Below, in pieces: positions 3,927 through 11,581 of a stretch of DNA of 64,000 bases (its first letter is position 1; each line of letters opens with the position of its first letter). The notes under the pieces are model-generated. The model was not told the origin of the DNA. It did no database searches and was given only the letters and a program-made list of their open reading frames with translations. Made by a program: the position numbers and the translations under genes. The stretch is from an uncultured Lachnospiraceae bacterium (GTDB taxonomy: Bacteria; Bacillota; Clostridia; Lachnospirales; Lachnospiraceae). The stretch spans positions 43,765 through 107,764 of the forward strand of contig CAJUPT010000003.1 of NCBI GenBank assembly GCA_910588405.1, given 5' to 3'.

Positions 3927-5210
3927 ATGATTACATTGACAAAAACCGCTCGTCTGCGAGGGGAGCTGACTGTCCCAGGCGACAAATCTATCTCCCACCG
4001 CAGCGTTATGTTCGGCTCGATTGCCAAGGGCGTTACGGAGATCACCGGATTCTTGCAGGGGGCTGACTGCCTGTCCACCATCGGCTGTTTTTCCGCCATG
4101 GGCGTGGAGATCCGGAATTCCGGCGAACAGGTTACGGTTCAGGGGCGCGGGCTGCGGGGATTGCGCCAGCCAGGCCATGTGCTGGACTGCGGTAACAGCG
4201 GAACTACTACCCGGCTCATTTCCGGCATCCTGAGCGGACAGAATTTCCCTGTCACCCTGACCGGGGACGCGTCAATCCGGAAAAGGCCGATGAAACGGAT
4301 TATGGAGCCTTTGCAGATGATGGGCGCGGAAATCACAAGCATACAGGGCAATGGCTGCGCACCGCTGCGCATCCAGGGACGGCCTTTACAGGGCATCCAC
4401 TATCAGTCTCCTGTGGCCTCTGCCCAGGTTAAATCCGCAGTTTTGCTGGCCGGGTTATATGCGGAAGGTGAAACCAAAGTGACGGAGCCTGCCCTTTCCC
4501 GGAACCACACGGAGCTGATGCTCCGCTATTTTGGCGCCGAAGTGGACAGCCAGGAAACGACGGCCTCCATCCGTCCCGCGGAAGAACTGTACGGGCAGAA
4601 AATCCATGTGCCCGGCGACATCTCCTCCGCCGCCTATTTTATCGCGGCAGGGCTGCTGGTACCCGACGCCGAACTGCTGATCCGCAATGTAGGGATCAAC
4701 CCCACCAGGGACGGTATCCTTAAGGTATGTCAGATGATGGGAGCGAACATTACATTATTAAATGAAGACCATAGCAGCGCGGAGCCTGTGGCTGATATCC
4801 TAGTCAGAAGCAGCGGCTTAAAGGGCTGTGTGATCGAAGGCCCGCTGATCCCCACTTTAATTGATGAGCTGCCGGTGATCGCATGTTTGGCCTGCTTTGC
4901 CCAAGGCGAAACCATAATCCGGGACGCCGCCGAATTAAAAATAAAGGAATCCAACCGGATTCAGGTTATGGCGGAAAACCTCACTGCCATGGGCGCTGAC
5001 GTGACGGAAACCGAGGACGGCATGGTGATCCGGGGCGGACGCCCTTTACACGGCGCCTCCATCCACTGTCATATGGACCACCGCATCGCCATGAGCTTCG
5101 CCATAGCCGCCCTGGCCGCGGAAGGGGAAACAGTGATTCAGGACAGTGAATGCGTGAATATTTCTTATCCAGGGTTTTATGAGGAGTTGGGAAGAGTTGT
5201 GGAAAATTAG
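3927..5210 (+). CDS. aroA: 3-phosphoshikimate 1-carboxyvinyltransferase (EPSP synthase)
   Basis: LTVPGDKSISHRSVMFGSIAKG... GNSGTTTRL motifs are typical of EPSP synthase. Length 427 aa. Confidence 0.9.
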   Translation: MITLTKTARLRGELTVPGDKSISHRSVMFGSIAKGVTEITGFLQGADCLSTIGCFSAMGVEIRNSGEQVTVQGRGLRGLRQPGHVLDCGNSGTTTRLISGILSGQNFPVTLTGDASIRKRPMKRIMEPLQMMGAEITSIQGNGCAPLRIQGRPLQGIHYQSPVASAQVKSAVLLAGLYAEGETKVTEPALSRNHTELMLRYFGAEVDSQETTASIRPAEELYGQKIHVPGDISSAAYFIAAGLLVPDAELLIRNVGINPTRDGILKVCQMMGANITLLNEDHSSAEPVADILVRSSGLKGCVIEGPLIPTLIDELPVIACLACFAQGETIIRDAAELKIKESNRIQVMAENLTAMGADVTETEDGMVIRGGRPLHGASIHCHMDHRIAMSFAIAALAAEGETVIQDSECVNISYPGFYEELGRVVEN

Positions 5211-5279
5211 AAGATTCGGATTGATTACAAACTATTCGCTTCAATAGGATCTCATTTATCTGATTATATTATAGAAAAT

Positions 5280-5314
5280 CGGGTCATTCTCATTGATGAG
5301 ATTGACCCAATTTT
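5280..5314 (+). terminator. rho-independent terminator after aroA
   Basis: Imperfect hairpin cgggtcattctca-ttga-tgagattgaccc followed by aatttt. Confidence 0.5.
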
Positions 5315-5362
5315 CGTGATCATTAACGCTTCTAGCGTTCCGTCTATATTGGTGATACATCC

Positions 5363-6739
5363 TCAGCCCGTCTCAAACCCATGCACCCAATCCGCTTTCA
5401 GATAATAGATCAGATAAATAACCGAGCTGATCCCCCAAGTCAGCGGGTAGGCCCAGTAGATCAGGCCGATATCTCCTGTCAGCTCCATCACCATCACAAT
5501 ATAGGCCACCCGTACAATGCACCAGATGGACAGCATAACGCCCATAGAGACGAAAGCCTTCCCTGCCCCCCGGCAGATGGCAGCCACCCCATGGGAAAAG
5601 GCCAGCAGGAAATAAAACAGCGTCACCGTACGGGCCTGCCGCACGCCCAGGGCTACCACGCCCGGCGTATTGTCGAACAGCCCCACCAGCACCGGGGCAA
5701 AGGTATAGTGGAGGATACCGATTCCTTCCGCCAGCAATACCGTAGCGATGATACTGAAAGCGGCTCCTTTTCTTGCCCGTTTATATTGCTTTGCCCCCAG
5801 ATTCTGGCTGACGAAGGTGGTTCCTGCCATATTAAAGCTTAAGATGGGCAAAAAGGCGAAGCCTTCAATTTTCGAGTGGACGCCGGCTGCTGCCGTAGCC
5901 AGGCTGCCGAATCGGTTGATCTGGGACTGCACCACCACATTTGCCAGGCCGATCATAGAATTCTGGATGCCCGAGGGAACGCCGTAATGAAGGATTTCCA
6001 TCAGCATATTCTTTTCAAACCGGATTTTTTTCATCTCCACCACAAACAGGTTGTCCTTATTCAGCAGGTGGGCCATACACAAAATAACGCTGACCGCCTG
6101 AGAGATCACGGTGGCCACGGCCGCTGACCAGACGCCCCAGTGGAATCCCATCAAAAATAGCACATCCAACACCACGTTCATCAGCGAGGAGATAATCAGA
6201 TAGTAAAGAGGGCGGCGGCTGTCCCCCAGCGCATTCATAATGCCGCAGCAGATCGTATACATGACCATGGCCACCACGCCCGTAAAATAATACCGGAAAT
6301 ATTCCACCGCCTCCGGCATCACCGCCGGGTCTGTCTGCATCCAGCTTAAAAATACGGGCGTACAGATCACGCCCGCAGCCGTCAGGAACAGGCCGCTGGC
6401 GATACCGAAGGCCAGAAGGGTGTGGATGGCGCAGGACACCCGCCCTGGCTTATCCGCACCGAAATATTTGGAGATGACCACACCGCCGCCCATGGCCGTT
6501 CCGTAGAAAAAACTGGTCATCAGAAAAATCAGGTTGCCCGACGAACTCACCGCCGCCAGCGCATTCGTCCCCAGCGCCCGGCCCACAATAAACGCATCCG
6601 CCGTATTATAAAGCTGCTGAAAAATTTGGCTGAGCAGCACCGGCAAGGTAAATATAAGCATCTGGGTATAGGGATTCCCCACTGTCATATCTTTTACGGA
6701 AGAATGGGTTCTTCCGGCGCTCTTTTGTAATTCAGACAT
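5363..6739 (-). CDS. MATE family multidrug efflux transporter
   Basis: 458 aa with 12 predicted TM segments and a typical NorM/DinF-like N-terminus (PYTQMLIFTLPVLLSQIFQQLYNTADAFIVG). Confidence 0.85.
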   Translation of the reverse strand: MSELQKSAGRTHSSVKDMTVGNPYTQMLIFTLPVLLSQIFQQLYNTADAFIVGRALGTNALAAVSSSGNLIFLMTSFFYGTAMGGGVVISKYFGADKPGRVSCAIHTLLAFGIASGLFLTAAGVICTPVFLSWMQTDPAVMPEAVEYFRYYFTGVVAMVMYTICCGIMNALGDSRRPLYYLIISSLMNVVLDVLFLMGFHWGVWSAAVATVISQAVSVILCMAHLLNKDNLFVVEMKKIRFEKNMLMEILHYGVPSGIQNSMIGLANVVVQSQINRFGSLATAAAGVHSKIEGFAFLPILSFNMAGTTFVSQNLGAKQYKRARKGAAFSIIATVLLAEGIGILHYTFAPVLVGLFDNTPGVVALGVRQARTVTLFYFLLAFSHGVAAICRGAGKAFVSMGVMLSIWCIVRVAYIVMVMELTGDIGLIYWAYPLTWGISSVIYLIYYLKADWVHGFETG

Positions 6740-6793
6740 CTTTCCGCCTCCGGCTTTTTATGCATGCTCAGATGTTAAATTAAACCGAAATAT

Positions 6794-7261
6794 TTACGTA
6801 TGTTTCAAATGGGATCTGCATATGCATGTACTGTTATCACCATGATCATCATCATACCATAATACATTAAAAACTCTTCCTATCATGTACCCATATAATC
6901 TGTGATTACCGGTTATTCTCAGTGATATCAATGACTCTGCTTCTATATATTTTGAAATCAATCTGTCTCGCGCTGTTTTGTTCAGTTCATCTAAATTTAA
7001 AGAATGATTCTGTTTTTTATCCCGAACTAATATTTCGCTCCATGTTTTGGCTTCCAATGCCTTTAATCTCGGAAGCACTTCCGTCCAAAACGACTCCCCC
7101 ATATGATCCTGAGAGAATGCCCACATCTCCTGATCAGAATTCACAAAAGCCCATGCAGGATATTCGCAATAATATCGCTCAGGATCTCCACCCTGAGCGA
7201 TATATCTTCCATTAGGAACTACTTTTTGTTTTACTTCTTTTTTTCGCTTAGAGCCCGCCAT
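6794..7261 (-). CDS. hypothetical protein; candidate toxin (PanT) partner of the upstream Panacea-domain antitoxin
   Basis: Its ATG overlaps the PanA stop by 14 nt (ATGGCGGGCTCTAA), indicating translational coupling. 155 aa, basic N-terminus. C-terminal RITGNHRLY resembles an Rx4H HEPN-like motif (weak). No recognisable family. Confidence 0.5.
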   Translation of the reverse strand: MAGSKRKKEVKQKVVPNGRYIAQGGDPERYYCEYPAWAFVNSDQEMWAFSQDHMGESFWTEVLPRLKALEAKTWSEILVRDKKQNHSLNLDELNKTARDRLISKYIEAESLISLRITGNHRLYGYMIGRVFNVLWYDDDHGDNSTCICRSHLKHT

Positions 7262-7679
7262 AGTATAATGCCATGCTTTCCTTTGTAATCACATGATTGC
7301 AACCTGCACCGGACGGAACTCCCTCTCTTGCCTTCAGCCAGGGGTCCTCCATATGTGTCAGTTGGCTGAGCCACTGGGCGTTGTGGCTGCCATAATGCTC
7401 TAATACCTTATCAATGGTATCTTTCTGATTATCAGACAAATCTCCTGCACCACCAGTTTCATCACTGGCGTTTACCGAATATTTACCCTGTGTTTTGAAG
7501 AAAAGTTCAGGACATACCGGACCATTCGCCCATGCCTGAAAGTCCTCCTCAAATAAAGGAGAATCGTCCCAAACAAGAGACCATGCCTGAGAATAATAGC
7601 ACAACTTCTGGAGTTTCATGGTTGACATAGAACCGGACTGTTCCAGAATATATTTTGCCGTATCCAAAACATTCGCCAT
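7248..7679 (-). CDS. Panacea (DUF4065) domain protein, PanA/GepA/SocA-like antitoxin
   Basis: Hallmark motif MKLQKLCYYSQAWSLVWDDSPLFEEDFQAWANGPV matches the DUF4065 signature (hLQKLLYYAQ.W.L....PLF.E.heAW..GPV). Confidence 0.8.
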   Translation of the reverse strand: MANVLDTAKYILEQSGSMSTMKLQKLCYYSQAWSLVWDDSPLFEEDFQAWANGPVCPELFFKTQGKYSVNASDETGGAGDLSDNQKDTIDKVLEHYGSHNAQWLSQLTHMEDPWLKAREGVPSGAGCNHVITKESMALYYGGL

Positions 7680-7717
7680 TTTTCATCCCCCTTTCACTTA
7701 TATAATATAACACGAAT

Positions 7718-8207
7718 TCAGTATCCTGAATAGTAGGAAAACCGCAAAATTTTCCAACCCGAAACGTTTTGAATGCTATCCTCCATATTCGAAGTTCTCA
7801 AGAAATGTGAAAAAGAGAACAACTGCATGTATCCACTCTTGACGTACCCTTTTTTCATCGCAATATCCGTACCCATATATTTTTTTATCCACACATACTT
7901 CCATCCATTTACACTACTATGCCTGTAATACTCAGGCATGAACCGCGCTCCCTTTCGAGCACTTTGCTTTTCCCACGCACGCCTCTTGCCATCAAAAGGC
8001 AGAGAGCACCACGGCAATCGCTACATAAACCGTCACCTCCGATTCTGCCAGGTCTTTCGTATCCGTCACGATGGCGGACATCCTGCTAACAAAACATTGC
8101 TTCCCAGCGATTTGCCTGATCTCATGAATTGCATCCATAGTCTTGTCCGCTGATGTGGTTGTGCCAAAAATAATAAACATCATGGTGGAATCTTCCGCGT
8201 TGAACAC
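7718..8207 (-). pseudogene. two short overlapping ORFs in different frames (7992..8207 and 7718..8017); possible frameshifted gene remnant
   Basis: 71-aa and 99-aa ORFs overlap by 26 nt with no RBS for the second. No recognisable family. AT-rich islet with the PanA/T pair. Confidence 0.25.
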
Positions 8208-8354
8208 ACTCCTGATCTCCTCCGGGAAGCATTTCCATCAAAATGCTTAGGCAAAACTGACTAACAGTCAATATATAAATTATTAAGTTTACATAAACTC
8301 ATCTTGACGAACAATTTTTTCGGGGGTAGTATAGAAATGGAAATTTTAAATCCA

Positions 8355-8462
8355 CCGGAAACAGCAACGCTCCGGACTACGGAATAGTAAGCGACTAAAG
8401 AACACCCGCTAACTATTCCGTATGCATCGCACGTAAGGGTCTAAAGACCAGACCCTTACGTG
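8355..8462 (+). promoter_or_regulatory. three consecutive hairpins upstream of the TetR gene (candidate leader RNA or operator cluster)
   Basis: ccgga-N11-tccgg (8355-8375); an 11-bp stem tacggaatagt/actattccgta (8378-8422); a 13-bp perfect stem cacgtaagggtct/agacccttacgtg (8430-8462). The last two loops share a CTAAAGA motif. Confidence 0.4.
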
Positions 8463-8567
8463 CTCATAGCAAAGCCCCGGGAGGACTTACTGACACTTCA
8501 GCGGCAGGAAATTCTCCCATACAAAGGGGCTTGGAAGGGGAGCTGCGGAACAGTAAATAAGGAAAAA

Positions 8568-9170
8568 ATGATGAAAAAAGTAGACATGAACAAAAAACAA
8601 AAGCGAGAATCCTTGCTTGATTCTGCCTTTTCCCTTTTTATGAACAATGGTTTCCATAAAACCTCCATCTCGAATATCGTGGAGGCCGCTGGTGTGGCAA
8701 AAGGCACCTTCTATCTTTATTTCAAGGACAAATACGATATCCGAAACCATCTGATCTCCCACAAGGCCAGCCTGGTGTTCCAGAACGCCTACCGCAGCCT
8801 CCTTGACAGCGGCGTGAAGGAATTTGAGGATCAGGTCATCTTTTTTATTGACCATATCCTGAACCAGTTTTCCGACGACCACCAGCTGGTCAGGCTTTTG
8901 TCAAAGCATTTAAGCTGGGGCATGTTTAAAAATTTTCTTACCGAGGCGGAGATTGCGGATTCGGAAAATATTCTGAATATCTTTCGGGGGCTTCTGTCCA
9001 ATGCGCCTTATTCCTACCGTAATCCGGAGGTGATGATCTATATGATCGTGGAGCTTGTAAGCGGCACCAGCTACAATTCCATCCTGTACGGGCAGCCTTT
9101 GCCTTTGGAACAGCTCAAGCCTTATATTTACGACTCCGTGCGAAGCATCATGAAAAATGAGCGGGTTTAA
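8568..9170 (+). CDS. TetR/AcrR family transcriptional regulator
   Basis: HTH region SISNIVEAAGVAKGTFYLYFKDKYD is a classic TetR N-terminal motif. Start moved to ATG 8568, which has an AAGGA RBS; the tracked ORF begins inside the upstream hairpin. Confidence 0.85.
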   Translation: MMKKVDMNKKQKRESLLDSAFSLFMNNGFHKTSISNIVEAAGVAKGTFYLYFKDKYDIRNHLISHKASLVFQNAYRSLLDSGVKEFEDQVIFFIDHILNQFSDDHQLVRLLSKHLSWGMFKNFLTEAEIADSENILNIFRGLLSNAPYSYRNPEVMIYMIVELVSGTSYNSILYGQPLPLEQLKPYIYDSVRSIMKNERV

Positions 9171-9193
9171 CCCGCCCATTTTTTCTATCACCG

Positions 9194-11581
9194 CTACCAA
9201 AACACTTTCACATATCTAAAATACCATCTCTGCGCCGGATTCAGCCTGCCCTCCGTATACCGGCAGGCCGCCTCGTAAACCTTCCACACCTGCAAACGCT
9301 CTTCCGGACTGGGCGCTCCGATTCCGAAGGCAGCGCGATCCACTGCCGCCATAGCTTGTCTGGCCATCTCCAAATCGATTTCAGAAACGGTCTGTTCCAG
9401 TCTGGCCGCACAGACCGAAGCCCCCTCCTGAAAGCTTACCGGACAGCCCCCCAGCCGCATCACCTGCTCCAATCGGGCATACAGCTCCAAAGGACCATAT
9501 CGTTTTTGCCGAATCAGAATTCTGTTTCTTCGTTTCTCCATCAGTCTCATTCCGCCATATAAGGCCCCGCTTACCAGAACCAATCCAAATAACAGCGGTA
9601 AAAGCCAGGCTTTAAGAGTTTGAAGCAATGAATCTGCATTTTCACCATTCTTCTGATTTTCCGTCCCGTTTCCCCCAGAACCATCCTGTCCGTCATCAGA
9701 AGCGGAGGCATCCGTTTCTGTTTCCGTCTCTGCTGCCGCATCACTTTCCTCCGCCCCCGAGCCATTGTCCTCTTCGTGCTGTTCCGTGTTTTCTTCCATC
9801 TCCATGCCCTCCGTCTCCTGGTCTTCTTCCAAAGGCATCTCCGGCATATCATCCAGTTCAGGAAAACCATCCGTATTCTGACCCAAAAATGCGCCTTCTG
9901 ACAATACGCCCGCTTCATAGGCTGAGGGCGGCGTCGCCTCCACCGGAATCCACCCCAGGCCAGCCACATAGATCTCCGGCCAGGCATGAGCCAGGCTGTC
10001 CTGCACCACACTATTCCAATTCCCGTCCTCACCTGGGGAAAATTCTGCCACAGGGGCAATATATCCCGCCACATAACGGGCCGGAATTCCATACATCCGG
10101 TACATCAGCACCGCTGTCGTAGCATAGTGGACACAGTACCCCTGCTTTCTCTCAAACAAAAAATATTCCGGAATTTCCTCACCGGCAGGAATAACCCCCG
10201 GTGTCATCGAATAGGAGGTCTGACTGCGAAGCGTTCTCAGAATAAAATCCGTGGCTTCCTCCCAGCCGGACACAGGATTCTCCCTGCAAAGCGCAGCCAG
10301 CCTGGGAAACCGTTCCTCCTCCACCTGGGTATACTGCTCATATACATAATACGTGTATACCTCTTCCGTCAAATCCATGTCCGAATAGGGGGCCTCCCTC
10401 ATCAGATCATAATAGTCCGCCAGCGAATACCAAGAAAACTGTCTGACATCCTCCTCCTCTCCCCGGAAAGCAGAAATATAAGGAGACATGCCATACCGGT
10501 TCCCATCCTGATATCCTGGCAGCATCTTTACCGCCATCCACCTACTCCGATTCCCCCCCTGATCCACCTCATAAGCTTTCTGGTAAGTCAATTCTGCCAA
10601 ATATTGTTCCAACTCCCTCTGTTTTTGAGGATTCCAGGAAGCCCTTTCCTCCAGAAACGTCGTCTCGTCCGCCGGCTGCCATGCATCCCCTCCATAAGCT
10701 CCGCCTGTAAACTGTCGCAGATAAATGGTTTGTTTCGGCTGTTCCGATACCTTCACAGCCGCCACATCCTGCCCGGTCACGTGGCGGTTCCCCCTGCTGA
10801 CATGCCCATCCTCCCGAAGAGAAACAGACACCGGCAGCTGCTGCTGAATCTGAAGGGACTGACGAATCCCCTGCTCCACTGCCAAAGGAGCCTGAAACAG
10901 CATCTCCCTTTTATACCAGGTCAGGCCGGAGGCAAACGGTAAAATACAGGCTAACAGACAGGTCAGCGCTAAAATCCCCCATCCCTGGCTGCGGCGCAGT
11001 GTCTCTCTGCCAACACACAGCATTCCGTCCCGTTTTCTATAAGCGCTTGCCGCCATCGCCCTGTCACCCAGATGAAAAAAAGCAAGCAGGCAGATGGCCG
11101 TCAGATCCGGTACACCGGTCAACAGTGGTTTTATCGCCACCAAAAGCCCTGTTACCGGGTAAAGTAGACTCCCCTTGCAGAAAATTACGGAAAGCCAATA
11201 CAGAGCTACCGACGACAGCAATATCCATGCAACCAGCAAAAAGGTCAGATCCATCCCCTGAAATCCATTGGGCATCCAACCGAACAAAAGCAGATTAACC
11301 GCCGCCGACAGCTGTACGCCAAGCCATCTTCCGCCGATCGCAAAAACTGCGCCGCAAAGAGCCATCCCGGCGATCCCGGAATACACACGCCGATTCCCGA
11401 TCATCCCGAACAGACACATTCCGCCGCAGCAAAGAAAGGCTACCAAATAGACAACCGGAGGATTCCAGCCAAAATCCGCCAGTGATGTAACGGCACGCAA
11501 CATTCCAAGCACGCCGCAAAAATAATATATAAACTCTCCCATATTATATATAAATCCACCTTTGTTCCAGCTCCCGGACAT
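9194..11581 (-). CDS. transglutaminase-like domain membrane protein (TgpA/DUF4129-type) with acidic low-complexity C-terminal region
   Basis: Multi-TM N-terminus. Transglutaminase core YCVHYATTAVLMYRMYGIPARYVAGY carries the catalytic Cys. Long E/D/T-rich segment. Last gene of the MoxR-DUF58-TGase triad. Confidence 0.8.
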   Translation of the reverse strand: MSGSWNKGGFIYNMGEFIYYFCGVLGMLRAVTSLADFGWNPPVVYLVAFLCCGGMCLFGMIGNRRVYSGIAGMALCGAVFAIGGRWLGVQLSAAVNLLLFGWMPNGFQGMDLTFLLVAWILLSSVALYWLSVIFCKGSLLYPVTGLLVAIKPLLTGVPDLTAICLLAFFHLGDRAMAASAYRKRDGMLCVGRETLRRSQGWGILALTCLLACILPFASGLTWYKREMLFQAPLAVEQGIRQSLQIQQQLPVSVSLREDGHVSRGNRHVTGQDVAAVKVSEQPKQTIYLRQFTGGAYGGDAWQPADETTFLEERASWNPQKQRELEQYLAELTYQKAYEVDQGGNRSRWMAVKMLPGYQDGNRYGMSPYISAFRGEEEDVRQFSWYSLADYYDLMREAPYSDMDLTEEVYTYYVYEQYTQVEEERFPRLAALCRENPVSGWEEATDFILRTLRSQTSYSMTPGVIPAGEEIPEYFLFERKQGYCVHYATTAVLMYRMYGIPARYVAGYIAPVAEFSPGEDGNWNSVVQDSLAHAWPEIYVAGLGWIPVEATPPSAYEAGVLSEGAFLGQNTDGFPELDDMPEMPLEEDQETEGMEMEENTEQHEEDNGSGAEESDAAAETETETDASASDDGQDGSGGNGTENQKNGENADSLLQTLKAWLLPLLFGLVLVSGALYGGMRLMEKRRNRILIRQKRYGPLELYARLEQVMRLGGCPVSFQEGASVCAARLEQTVSEIDLEMARQAMAAVDRAAFGIGAPSPEERLQVWKVYEAACRYTEGRLNPAQRWYFRYVKVFW

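Follow-up and report, generated by a model that had tools for sequence, protein, structure and literature searches.

What does a Panacea-domain gene encode together with the 155-residue protein that follows it, and does the pair constitute a toxin-antitoxin module? The question is raised by two minus-strand genes at positions 6794 to 7679 of the window, which is the whole 64,000-nt stretch of DNA from an uncultured Lachnospiraceae bacterium (contig CAJUPT010000003.1) that we analyzed. Both open reading frames are present, and the locus contains the following features.

5363..6739, minus strand (as the module): MatE pump gene, located 54 nt downstream of the partner gene
6794..7261, minus strand: panT, the partner gene, encoding a toxin candidate of 155 aa (PanT cluster T1 / NetFlax D3)
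7248-7261, minus strand: 14-nt overlap of the panA stop and the partner start, ATGGCGGGCTCTAA
7248..7679, minus strand: panA, encoding a stand-alone Panacea (DUF4065/SocA-like) protein of 143 aa, the predicted antitoxin
7718..7939 and 7992..8207: small ORFs without a family match, outside the unit common to the genomes
8460..9170, plus strand: divergent TetR regulator gene on the far side of the module

The 14-nt overlap of the two genes, already described in a first-pass annotation, was read directly from the sequence. The AT-rich islet that the same annotation had placed between a MATE pump and a TetR regulator was borne out by the neighbor genes and by the GC profile, which is 0.37–0.46 at about 6600–8600 and 0.51–0.60 on either side. 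The gene fragments that had also been suspected there were not confirmed, since the two small ORFs have no family match and lie outside the shared unit. The module sits in a chromosomal islet of 1.7 kb, and no phage genes were present near it in the window. A second copy of panA or panT was not found elsewhere in the window, an Rfam RNA was not found within 5000–10000, and direct repeats flanking the module, which would be a sign of transposition, were not found either. The partner protein of the window corresponds to MCI8674693.1, and this copy is absent from the Kurata 2022 and NetFlax data sets.

The upstream protein has the Panacea/DUF4065 identity that was originally assigned to it. Its match to Pfam SocA_Panacea (PF13274; E=1.9e-19) covers profile positions 1–112 of 113 with 71.1 bits, well above the gathering score of 25.7, and there is no added N-terminal or other domain. 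PanA also matches phrog_1281 (E=7e-36). Its score against the NCBIfam SocA_antitoxin equivalog is 46.8 bits (E=2.5e-12). Because this value is far under the equivalog cutoff of 190, PanA is not an orthologue of SocA. The full-length copies of PanA at other loci are 57–94% identical to that of the window.

The partner protein was more difficult to place. No Pfam family matched it at E values up to 1, and sequence and profile searches against the PDB gave only chance matches (I-MsoI, Mx1, and TrmE). A word-indexed search retrieved 408 unnamed proteins, mostly of 155 aa, from Lachnospiraceae and other Clostridia. An exhaustive profile search gave 1426 clusters (50% identity) at E≤1e-3 and 473 at E≤1e-10. 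The conservation and HMM counts below are based on 92 diverse relatives with 29–55% identity to the window partner. These relatives have no consistent Pfam family, only scattered single chance matches. The window partner was not matched by any RelE, ParE, HigB, YafQ, or YoeB sequence model, and among the 92 relatives the sole touch was HigB-like_toxin in one (E=0.068).

Two uncharacterized families were matched by the partner, namely phrog_8366 (E=1.6e-10) and NCBIfam NF046006, the MAG6450 family (E=4e-4). For the latter, whose cutoff is 40, the score is 20.8 bits; therefore, the partner is a relative of MAG6450 and not a member, and 79 of the 92 relatives match the same model (best E=1.1e-9). 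In addition, residues 61–140 of the partner align with positions 203–278 of the 284 positions in the PADLOC model of NsnC (E=3e-5), which is matched by 67 of the 92 relatives (best E=1.9e-9). [quoted passage not shown] This domain, from the Menshen system (NsnABC), is a BECR RNase (PB-BECR1) with an H-R-H triad, and its closest structure is YafQ (PMC12065111, Li et al. 2025, NAR). The possibility that homology searches would place the partner in a housekeeping family did not materialize.

The group to which the partner belongs has already been published. No published group of Panacea-associated toxins is larger than cluster T1, which Kurata et al. 2022 (PNAS, PMC8832971) defined and which comprises 217 of 1268 predicted PanAT pairs, from many phyla. 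In the T1 pairs, a stand-alone Panacea ('noNTD') comes first and a 'hypothetical' toxin of ~150 aa comes second (PMC8832971). The locus that we found in Bacterium 1XD21-70 (L026) has a partner 80% and a PanA 94% identical to those of the window, with the same 14-nt overlap. Dataset S1 of PMC8832971 gives for this organism WP_121706052.1/WP_121706053.1, with the order A|T, a gap of −14, and cluster T1. On this sequence comparison, the window partner belongs to T1, where L026 is equated with the WP_ pair on the basis of organism, gene order, and gap. The T1 pair of A. colombiense (WP_013048536.1/WP_013048535.1) is 'Panacea : D3' in NetFlax (PMC10440598). Since this pair is common to both data sets, T1 is the same group as NetFlax node D3. 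The window pair is consequently a new member of the published PanA:T1/D3 family; it enlarges a known kind of system and does not establish a new one.

T1/D3 was reported without detectable homology, and its experimental record is short. The T1 toxin of C. cadaveris is toxic in E. coli and was labelled 'mRNase' by the authors, but its cognate PanA failed to neutralize it in E. coli, and this is the only tested PanA:T1 pair (PMC8832971). Therefore, no PanA:T1 module has so far been validated as a toxin-antitoxin system. AarT of A. guerrae (D3), which is paired with an AAA ATPase, is a validated toxin that inhibits 35S-Met incorporation and hence translation (PMC10440598). No HHpred match was reported for AarT, but the authors assigned it an mRNA interferase fold (PMC10440598). 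We found no later literature on PanA:T1 or AarT beyond these two papers of the Hauryliuk/Atkinson groups (PMC8832971 and PMC10440598).

A structure model of the partner was calculated from the diverse alignment of 92 sequences and had a pLDDT of 92.1 and a pTM of 0.80. A model from 43 close homologues (70–85% identity) had a pLDDT of 47.5 and was unusable. In the former, helices are packed on an antiparallel beta-sheet, which is the hallmark of the RelE/ParE superfamily. According to this model, the partner adopts the BECR fold of the RelE/ParE superfamily, elaborated by ~55 additional residues at the N-terminus and by a helix insertion. Foldseek searches against the PDB found RelE-type families with E-values of 0.1–1, which are individually insignificant, and a search against the BFVD viral structures gave nothing useful. 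The partner is described as follows.

Residues 1-25: Lys-rich N-terminal tail
Residues 35-47: conserved P-x-W-x-F-x3-D-x3-W segment
Residues ~50-145: predicted RelE/BECR-type core
Residues 95-103: inserted helix
C-terminal: conserved K-H-T

Because no named toxin model matches the partner, it is a structural relative that lies outside every named sequence family. Its earlier description as unrecognizable and novel does not hold, given the RelE/ParE fold of the model and the published T1/D3 assignment.

Conservation among the 92 relatives points to a candidate active site. H86 (90/92), R121 (89/92), and H140 (92/92) form a candidate catalytic set, and the partner is presumably an endoribonuclease. 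D137, W135, and G124 are each found in all 92 relatives, W37 in 91, and E70 in 90. In phages of P. aeruginosa, a divergent branch of the relatives is without R121 and H140; therefore, not all relatives can be nucleases. A protein of the RelE/ParE fold may instead act in the manner of ParE, poisoning DNA gyrase with no ribonuclease activity. We regard such a role for the partner as improbable.

The first-pass annotation had looked for the active site elsewhere. It noted a loose resemblance of the RITGNHRLY motif, which is present at residues 115–123, to the Rx4-6H motif of HEPN RNases. The string R-I-T-G-N-H does stand at residues 115–120, and an HEPN-type RNase would use R115-x4-H120. However, both residues are poorly conserved: R115 is found in 71 of the 92 relatives and H120 in only 19, where K, E, and Q are common at this position. 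The HEPN domain is all-helical, whereas in our model the segment spans the beta-strands 110–115 and 121–127 of the RelE-type sheet. There were no HEPN proteins among the structural matches and no HEPN family matches for the partner. On account of the conservation of H120 and R115 and the location in strands, the HEPN reading was rejected, and we find it scarcely credible.

The pairing of the two genes was followed across genomes. Scanning a single genome from each species gave 66 loci, and ~100 loci were obtained in all, including 48 viral contigs. At 93 loci outside the window's own species, from metagenome-assembled genomes (MAGs) of Lachnospiraceae and other Clostridia and from viral contigs, both genes are full-length. 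PanA is directly upstream of the partner in every one of these 93 loci, and the overlap is exactly 14 nt in 83 of them. The adjacency is also found for partner relatives at 30–36% identity and in the divergent pair of temperate P. aeruginosa phages. The pairing is far beyond chance, and the consistent adjacency upholds the original proposal of a conserved two-gene, TA-like module with PanA. Kurata et al. selected loci by a gap of up to 100 nt and conservation across species, and the window pair shows both, with its 14-nt overlap and 93 other loci.

The contexts of the pair differ between genomes. It lies between MatE and TetR genes in the window, with hydantoinase and PD-(D/E)XK genes in a Dorea MAG, and with prfA and PD-(D/E)XK genes in a Roseburia MAG. 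Between these contexts, the DNA is similar from about position 7756, upstream of panA, to the stop codon of the toxin gene. These limits define a mobile unit of ~980 bp (about 6780–7756 of the window, minus strand). The same ~980 bp are found in predicted prophages and on chromosomes in three or more unrelated contexts, which agrees with the acquired accessory module that had been suggested. In IMG/VR, the toxin was found on 49 viral contigs, and PanA was also found on the 48 that have upstream DNA. In the two viral contigs that were inspected, the neighbors of the pair are either anti-repressor genes or genes for endolysin and tail fibres. Among gut Lachnospiraceae and their prophages, the module is very common.

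The upstream end of the shared unit appears to carry the signals for expression.

7680..7756, minus strand: predicted promoter and 5' leader of the module, conserved among the loci
7732-7727, minus strand: −35-like box TATTCA, separated from the −10 element by a 17-nt spacer
7712-7704, minus strand: extended −10 element TGtTATATT, kept as TGnTATATT among relatives
7694-7686, minus strand: strong Shine-Dalgarno sequence AAAGGGGGA, 6 nt ahead of the PanA ATG

In an alignment of 18 loci, the −10 positions TA.A.T and the upstream TG are invariant, and the TGTTCA/TATTCA box and the AGGAGG-like Shine-Dalgarno sequence are conserved. All of these elements fall in the shared upstream 40–75 nt, and 7680..7756 is probably the module's own promoter. 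An inverted repeat in the −35 region (ATTCAG-N4-CTGAAT, 7731-7716) was considered as an operator and dropped, as it is not conserved among relatives. For the partner gene, the nearest Shine-Dalgarno-like sequence, AAGGAAAG, ends 14 nt ahead of the ATG. Since the partner start lies 14 nt ahead of the PanA stop and lacks a Shine-Dalgarno sequence at a suitable distance, the partner is probably translated at a level below that of PanA, and the arrangement suggests translational coupling of the partner to PanA.

Decayed alleles were also found. PanA is intact in L064 and L066, and the toxin carries an internal deletion; inspection of the ORFs showed that the deletion in L064 is in frame and removes approximately residues 7–80. 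In L049, only remnants of PanA are left, and the toxin is frameshifted. An intact toxin without PanA was not seen among the loci for which upstream DNA was available. These alleles appear to follow toxin-antitoxin logic and fit a toxic nature of the partner.

In each of the 93 loci, conservation is higher for PanA than for the toxin; the mean identities to the window proteins are 79.7% and 61.9%, respectively. Type II toxin-antitoxin pairs usually have the reverse pattern, in which the antitoxin is less conserved than the toxin. Diversifying selection on the toxin may account for the asymmetry, or else Panacea may be strongly constrained by acting as a sensor, a role that has been proposed for it (PMC10440598).

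We consider that the locus is best explained as a type II PanAT module, in which a RelE/YafQ-like endoribonuclease toxin that blocks translation is neutralized by the binding of a stand-alone Panacea antitoxin. We assign this reading a probability of roughly 0.7. One sigma-A-type promoter would drive a bicistronic mRNA with the PanA cistron first, and the toxin would probably be translated by coupling, at a lower level than PanA. The toxin would most likely shut down translation as an endoribonuclease by means of H86, R121, and H140. By analogy, PanA most likely neutralizes it through direct protein-protein binding; this mode is favored because it has been shown for other stand-alone Panacea antitoxins. 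Loss or displacement of PanA would then lead to growth arrest or abortive infection. RNase activity, the toxin target, direct neutralization, translational coupling, and any role in phage defence are inferred features of the module.

Neutralization could alternatively be of the SocAB-like type VI, in which PanA delivers the toxin to ClpXP for degradation and does not block it directly. Panacea is the domain of SocA, PanA retains a weak match to the SocA_antitoxin model, and the failure of the C. cadaveris PanA in E. coli might be due to a protease partner that this host lacks. However, the SocA score is far under the equivalog cutoff, as described above, and the toxin is RelE-like in its predicted fold and not SocB-like. 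Furthermore, PMC8832971 treats PanAT pairs as type II systems and reports that complexes of the validated pairs were recovered in pull-down assays. Neutralization by PanAT pairs was also re-assayed there in strains without ClpXP and Lon. A type VI mechanism is very unlikely in our view, and direct binding by PanA remains the preferred mode.

The biological role of a type II module of this kind may be weighed separately. The module may be primarily anti-phage, acting by abortive infection or superinfection exclusion and not by addiction, with Panacea sensing infection and releasing the RNase. Several observations point in this direction: the toxin domain recurs in the effector of Menshen, a defence system, 48 relatives are on predicted viral contigs with moron-like positions in the two inspected, a sensory role is proposed for Panacea (PMC10440598), and the toxin evolves faster than PanA, as an arms race might give. 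However, no PanA:T1 pair is known to have a defence phenotype, the related AarT:AAA system did not protect against the BASEL phages (PMC10440598), and the module of the window is in a chromosomal islet without phage genes. We regard a primarily anti-phage role as possible, at clearly less than even odds. It is compatible with the type II explanation and not exclusive of it.

A broader form of this idea is that PanA:T1 pairs in general are abortive-infection devices of prophages and islets. A free-standing PB-BECR1 RNase would be held inactive by a Panacea 'sensor', and the divergence of the toxin would be the trace of an arms race. This generalization is rather doubtful at present. If it were true, one RNase domain would be wired to PanA, to an AAA ATPase (in AarT), and to NsnAB, and the pair would be a clean test bed for infection sensing by Panacea.

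The locus adds one copy to a class of Panacea-associated toxins that is already the largest on record, and its discovery value is low. The analysis nevertheless provides T1/D3 with a confident RelE/BECR-fold model, a candidate H86-R121-H140 site, and a sequence link to PB-BECR1 and MAG6450. It also gives a population picture of a promoter-plus-two-gene unit of ~980 bp that is abundant in gut Lachnospiraceae and prophages. These results, together with the systematically higher conservation of the antitoxin, may be useful to specialists. Because no PanA:T1 pair has been validated, this abundant gut variant is a reasonable candidate for a neutralization assay.

Compared with the classical RelE-superfamily toxins, the partner has no detectable sequence similarity to the Pfam models of RelE, YoeB, YafQ, and HigB. 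It is ~60 residues longer than these toxins owing to an extra N-terminal segment and the inserted helix 95-103. The classical toxins are paired with the antitoxins RelB, YefM, DinJ, and HigA, whereas the window pair has Panacea.

In its likeness to PB-BECR1 of NsnC, the window partner has a predicted BECR/RelE-type fold, YafQ-like structural neighbors, and, in the region aligned with NsnC, a conserved His-Arg-His set that may correspond to the triad of that domain. In NsnC, however, this domain is fused to an inactive PIN domain and is under the control of NsnA and NsnB, while the window partner is free-standing, has a ~55-residue N-terminal extension and no PIN-like domain, and is predicted to be controlled by PanA. 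The neighbors in Menshen are nsnA (ParB-DUF262) and nsnB (ABC ATPase; PMC12065111). Neither gene is near the window pair, which is accompanied by the MatE and TetR genes. The lack of a PIN domain and of nsnA and nsnB neighbors indicates that the window pair is not a Menshen system.

The AarT(D3):AAA pair of Acinetobacter guerrae shares the toxin cluster with the window pair but differs in its antitoxin, which is an AAA ATPase and not Panacea. The closest counterparts are the published PanA:T1 pairs, from which the window pair is structurally no different, and its gene order and −14 overlap are those of the pair in Bacterium 1XD21-70.

The MatE pump gene, encoded on the same strand as the candidate toxin gene panT, begins after a gap of only 54 nt from the panT stop codon (6739-6794). 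No terminator-like site was found when this gap was examined. Read-through from the module promoter into the pump gene could occur.

On its other side, the module is separated from the TetR gene by two small open reading frames, followed by two strong palindromes at the annotated start of TetR.

Features between the module and the TetR gene
7718-7939, minus strand: small open reading frame of 73 aa, a gene call in the MAG annotations
7992-8207, minus strand: small open reading frame of 71 aa, a gene call in the MAG annotations
8378-8422: palindrome 1, strong, with 16-nt arms (94% complementary) and a 13-nt spacer
8429-8463: palindrome 2, strong, with perfect 14-nt arms (GCACGTAAGGGTCT / AGACCCTTACGTGC) and a 7-nt spacer

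Neither small reading frame has a Pfam match, and both fall outside the unit of approximately 980 bp, comprising the module and its promoter, that is common to other genomes. They may be remnants of a disrupted gene, one possibility being a transporter gene paired with TetR. Both palindromes are located at the annotated GTG start codon of TetR (8460), which is overlapped by the right arm of palindrome 2 (8450-8463). If a shorter TetR call (199 aa) is correct, both palindromes are placed upstream of the gene. Possible roles for the palindromes are as operators for TetR or as a terminator.

Decayed copies of the module were observed among the related loci. PanA is intact and the toxin has an internal deletion in L064 (3025-3267) and L066; the deletion in L064 is in frame. 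In L049 (820-1297), the toxin is frameshifted, and only remnants of PanA are present. Isolated 3' fragments of the toxin gene (18-52 codons) are found in L073-L079; PanA is present in L073, and none lies upstream of the fragments in L074-L079.

Second Panacea genes were observed in some loci, including one approximately 4 kb upstream of the PanA-toxin pair (L088, 1487-1915; a 47%-identical paralogue) and another downstream of the toxin (L052, 888-1316). These may represent tandem or neighbouring PanAT modules. In a 345-aa cluster representative from the exhaustive profile search (P0125), the full toxin domain (residues 2-150) is followed by approximately 195 more residues; this extra length could reflect either a fusion or an artefact of gene calling.

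A divergent pair is encoded by Pseudomonas phage vB_Pae_CF60a (MK510969.1; L133, 1895-2761) and six sister phages, in which a divergent PanA (34% identity, annotated as 'prophage ps3 protein 01') precedes a 137-aa protein related to the toxin (hhalign probability, 98%). Of the candidate catalytic residues, H140 is replaced by Phe and R121 is absent in the phage protein; therefore, judging from these substitutions, the phage relatives may form a non-catalytic branch.

In all 93 related loci compared (within L007-L129), conservation is higher for PanA (mean identity, 79.7%) than for the toxin (61.9%). This pattern is the opposite of that in type II toxin-antitoxin pairs, in which the toxin is usually more conserved than the antitoxin.
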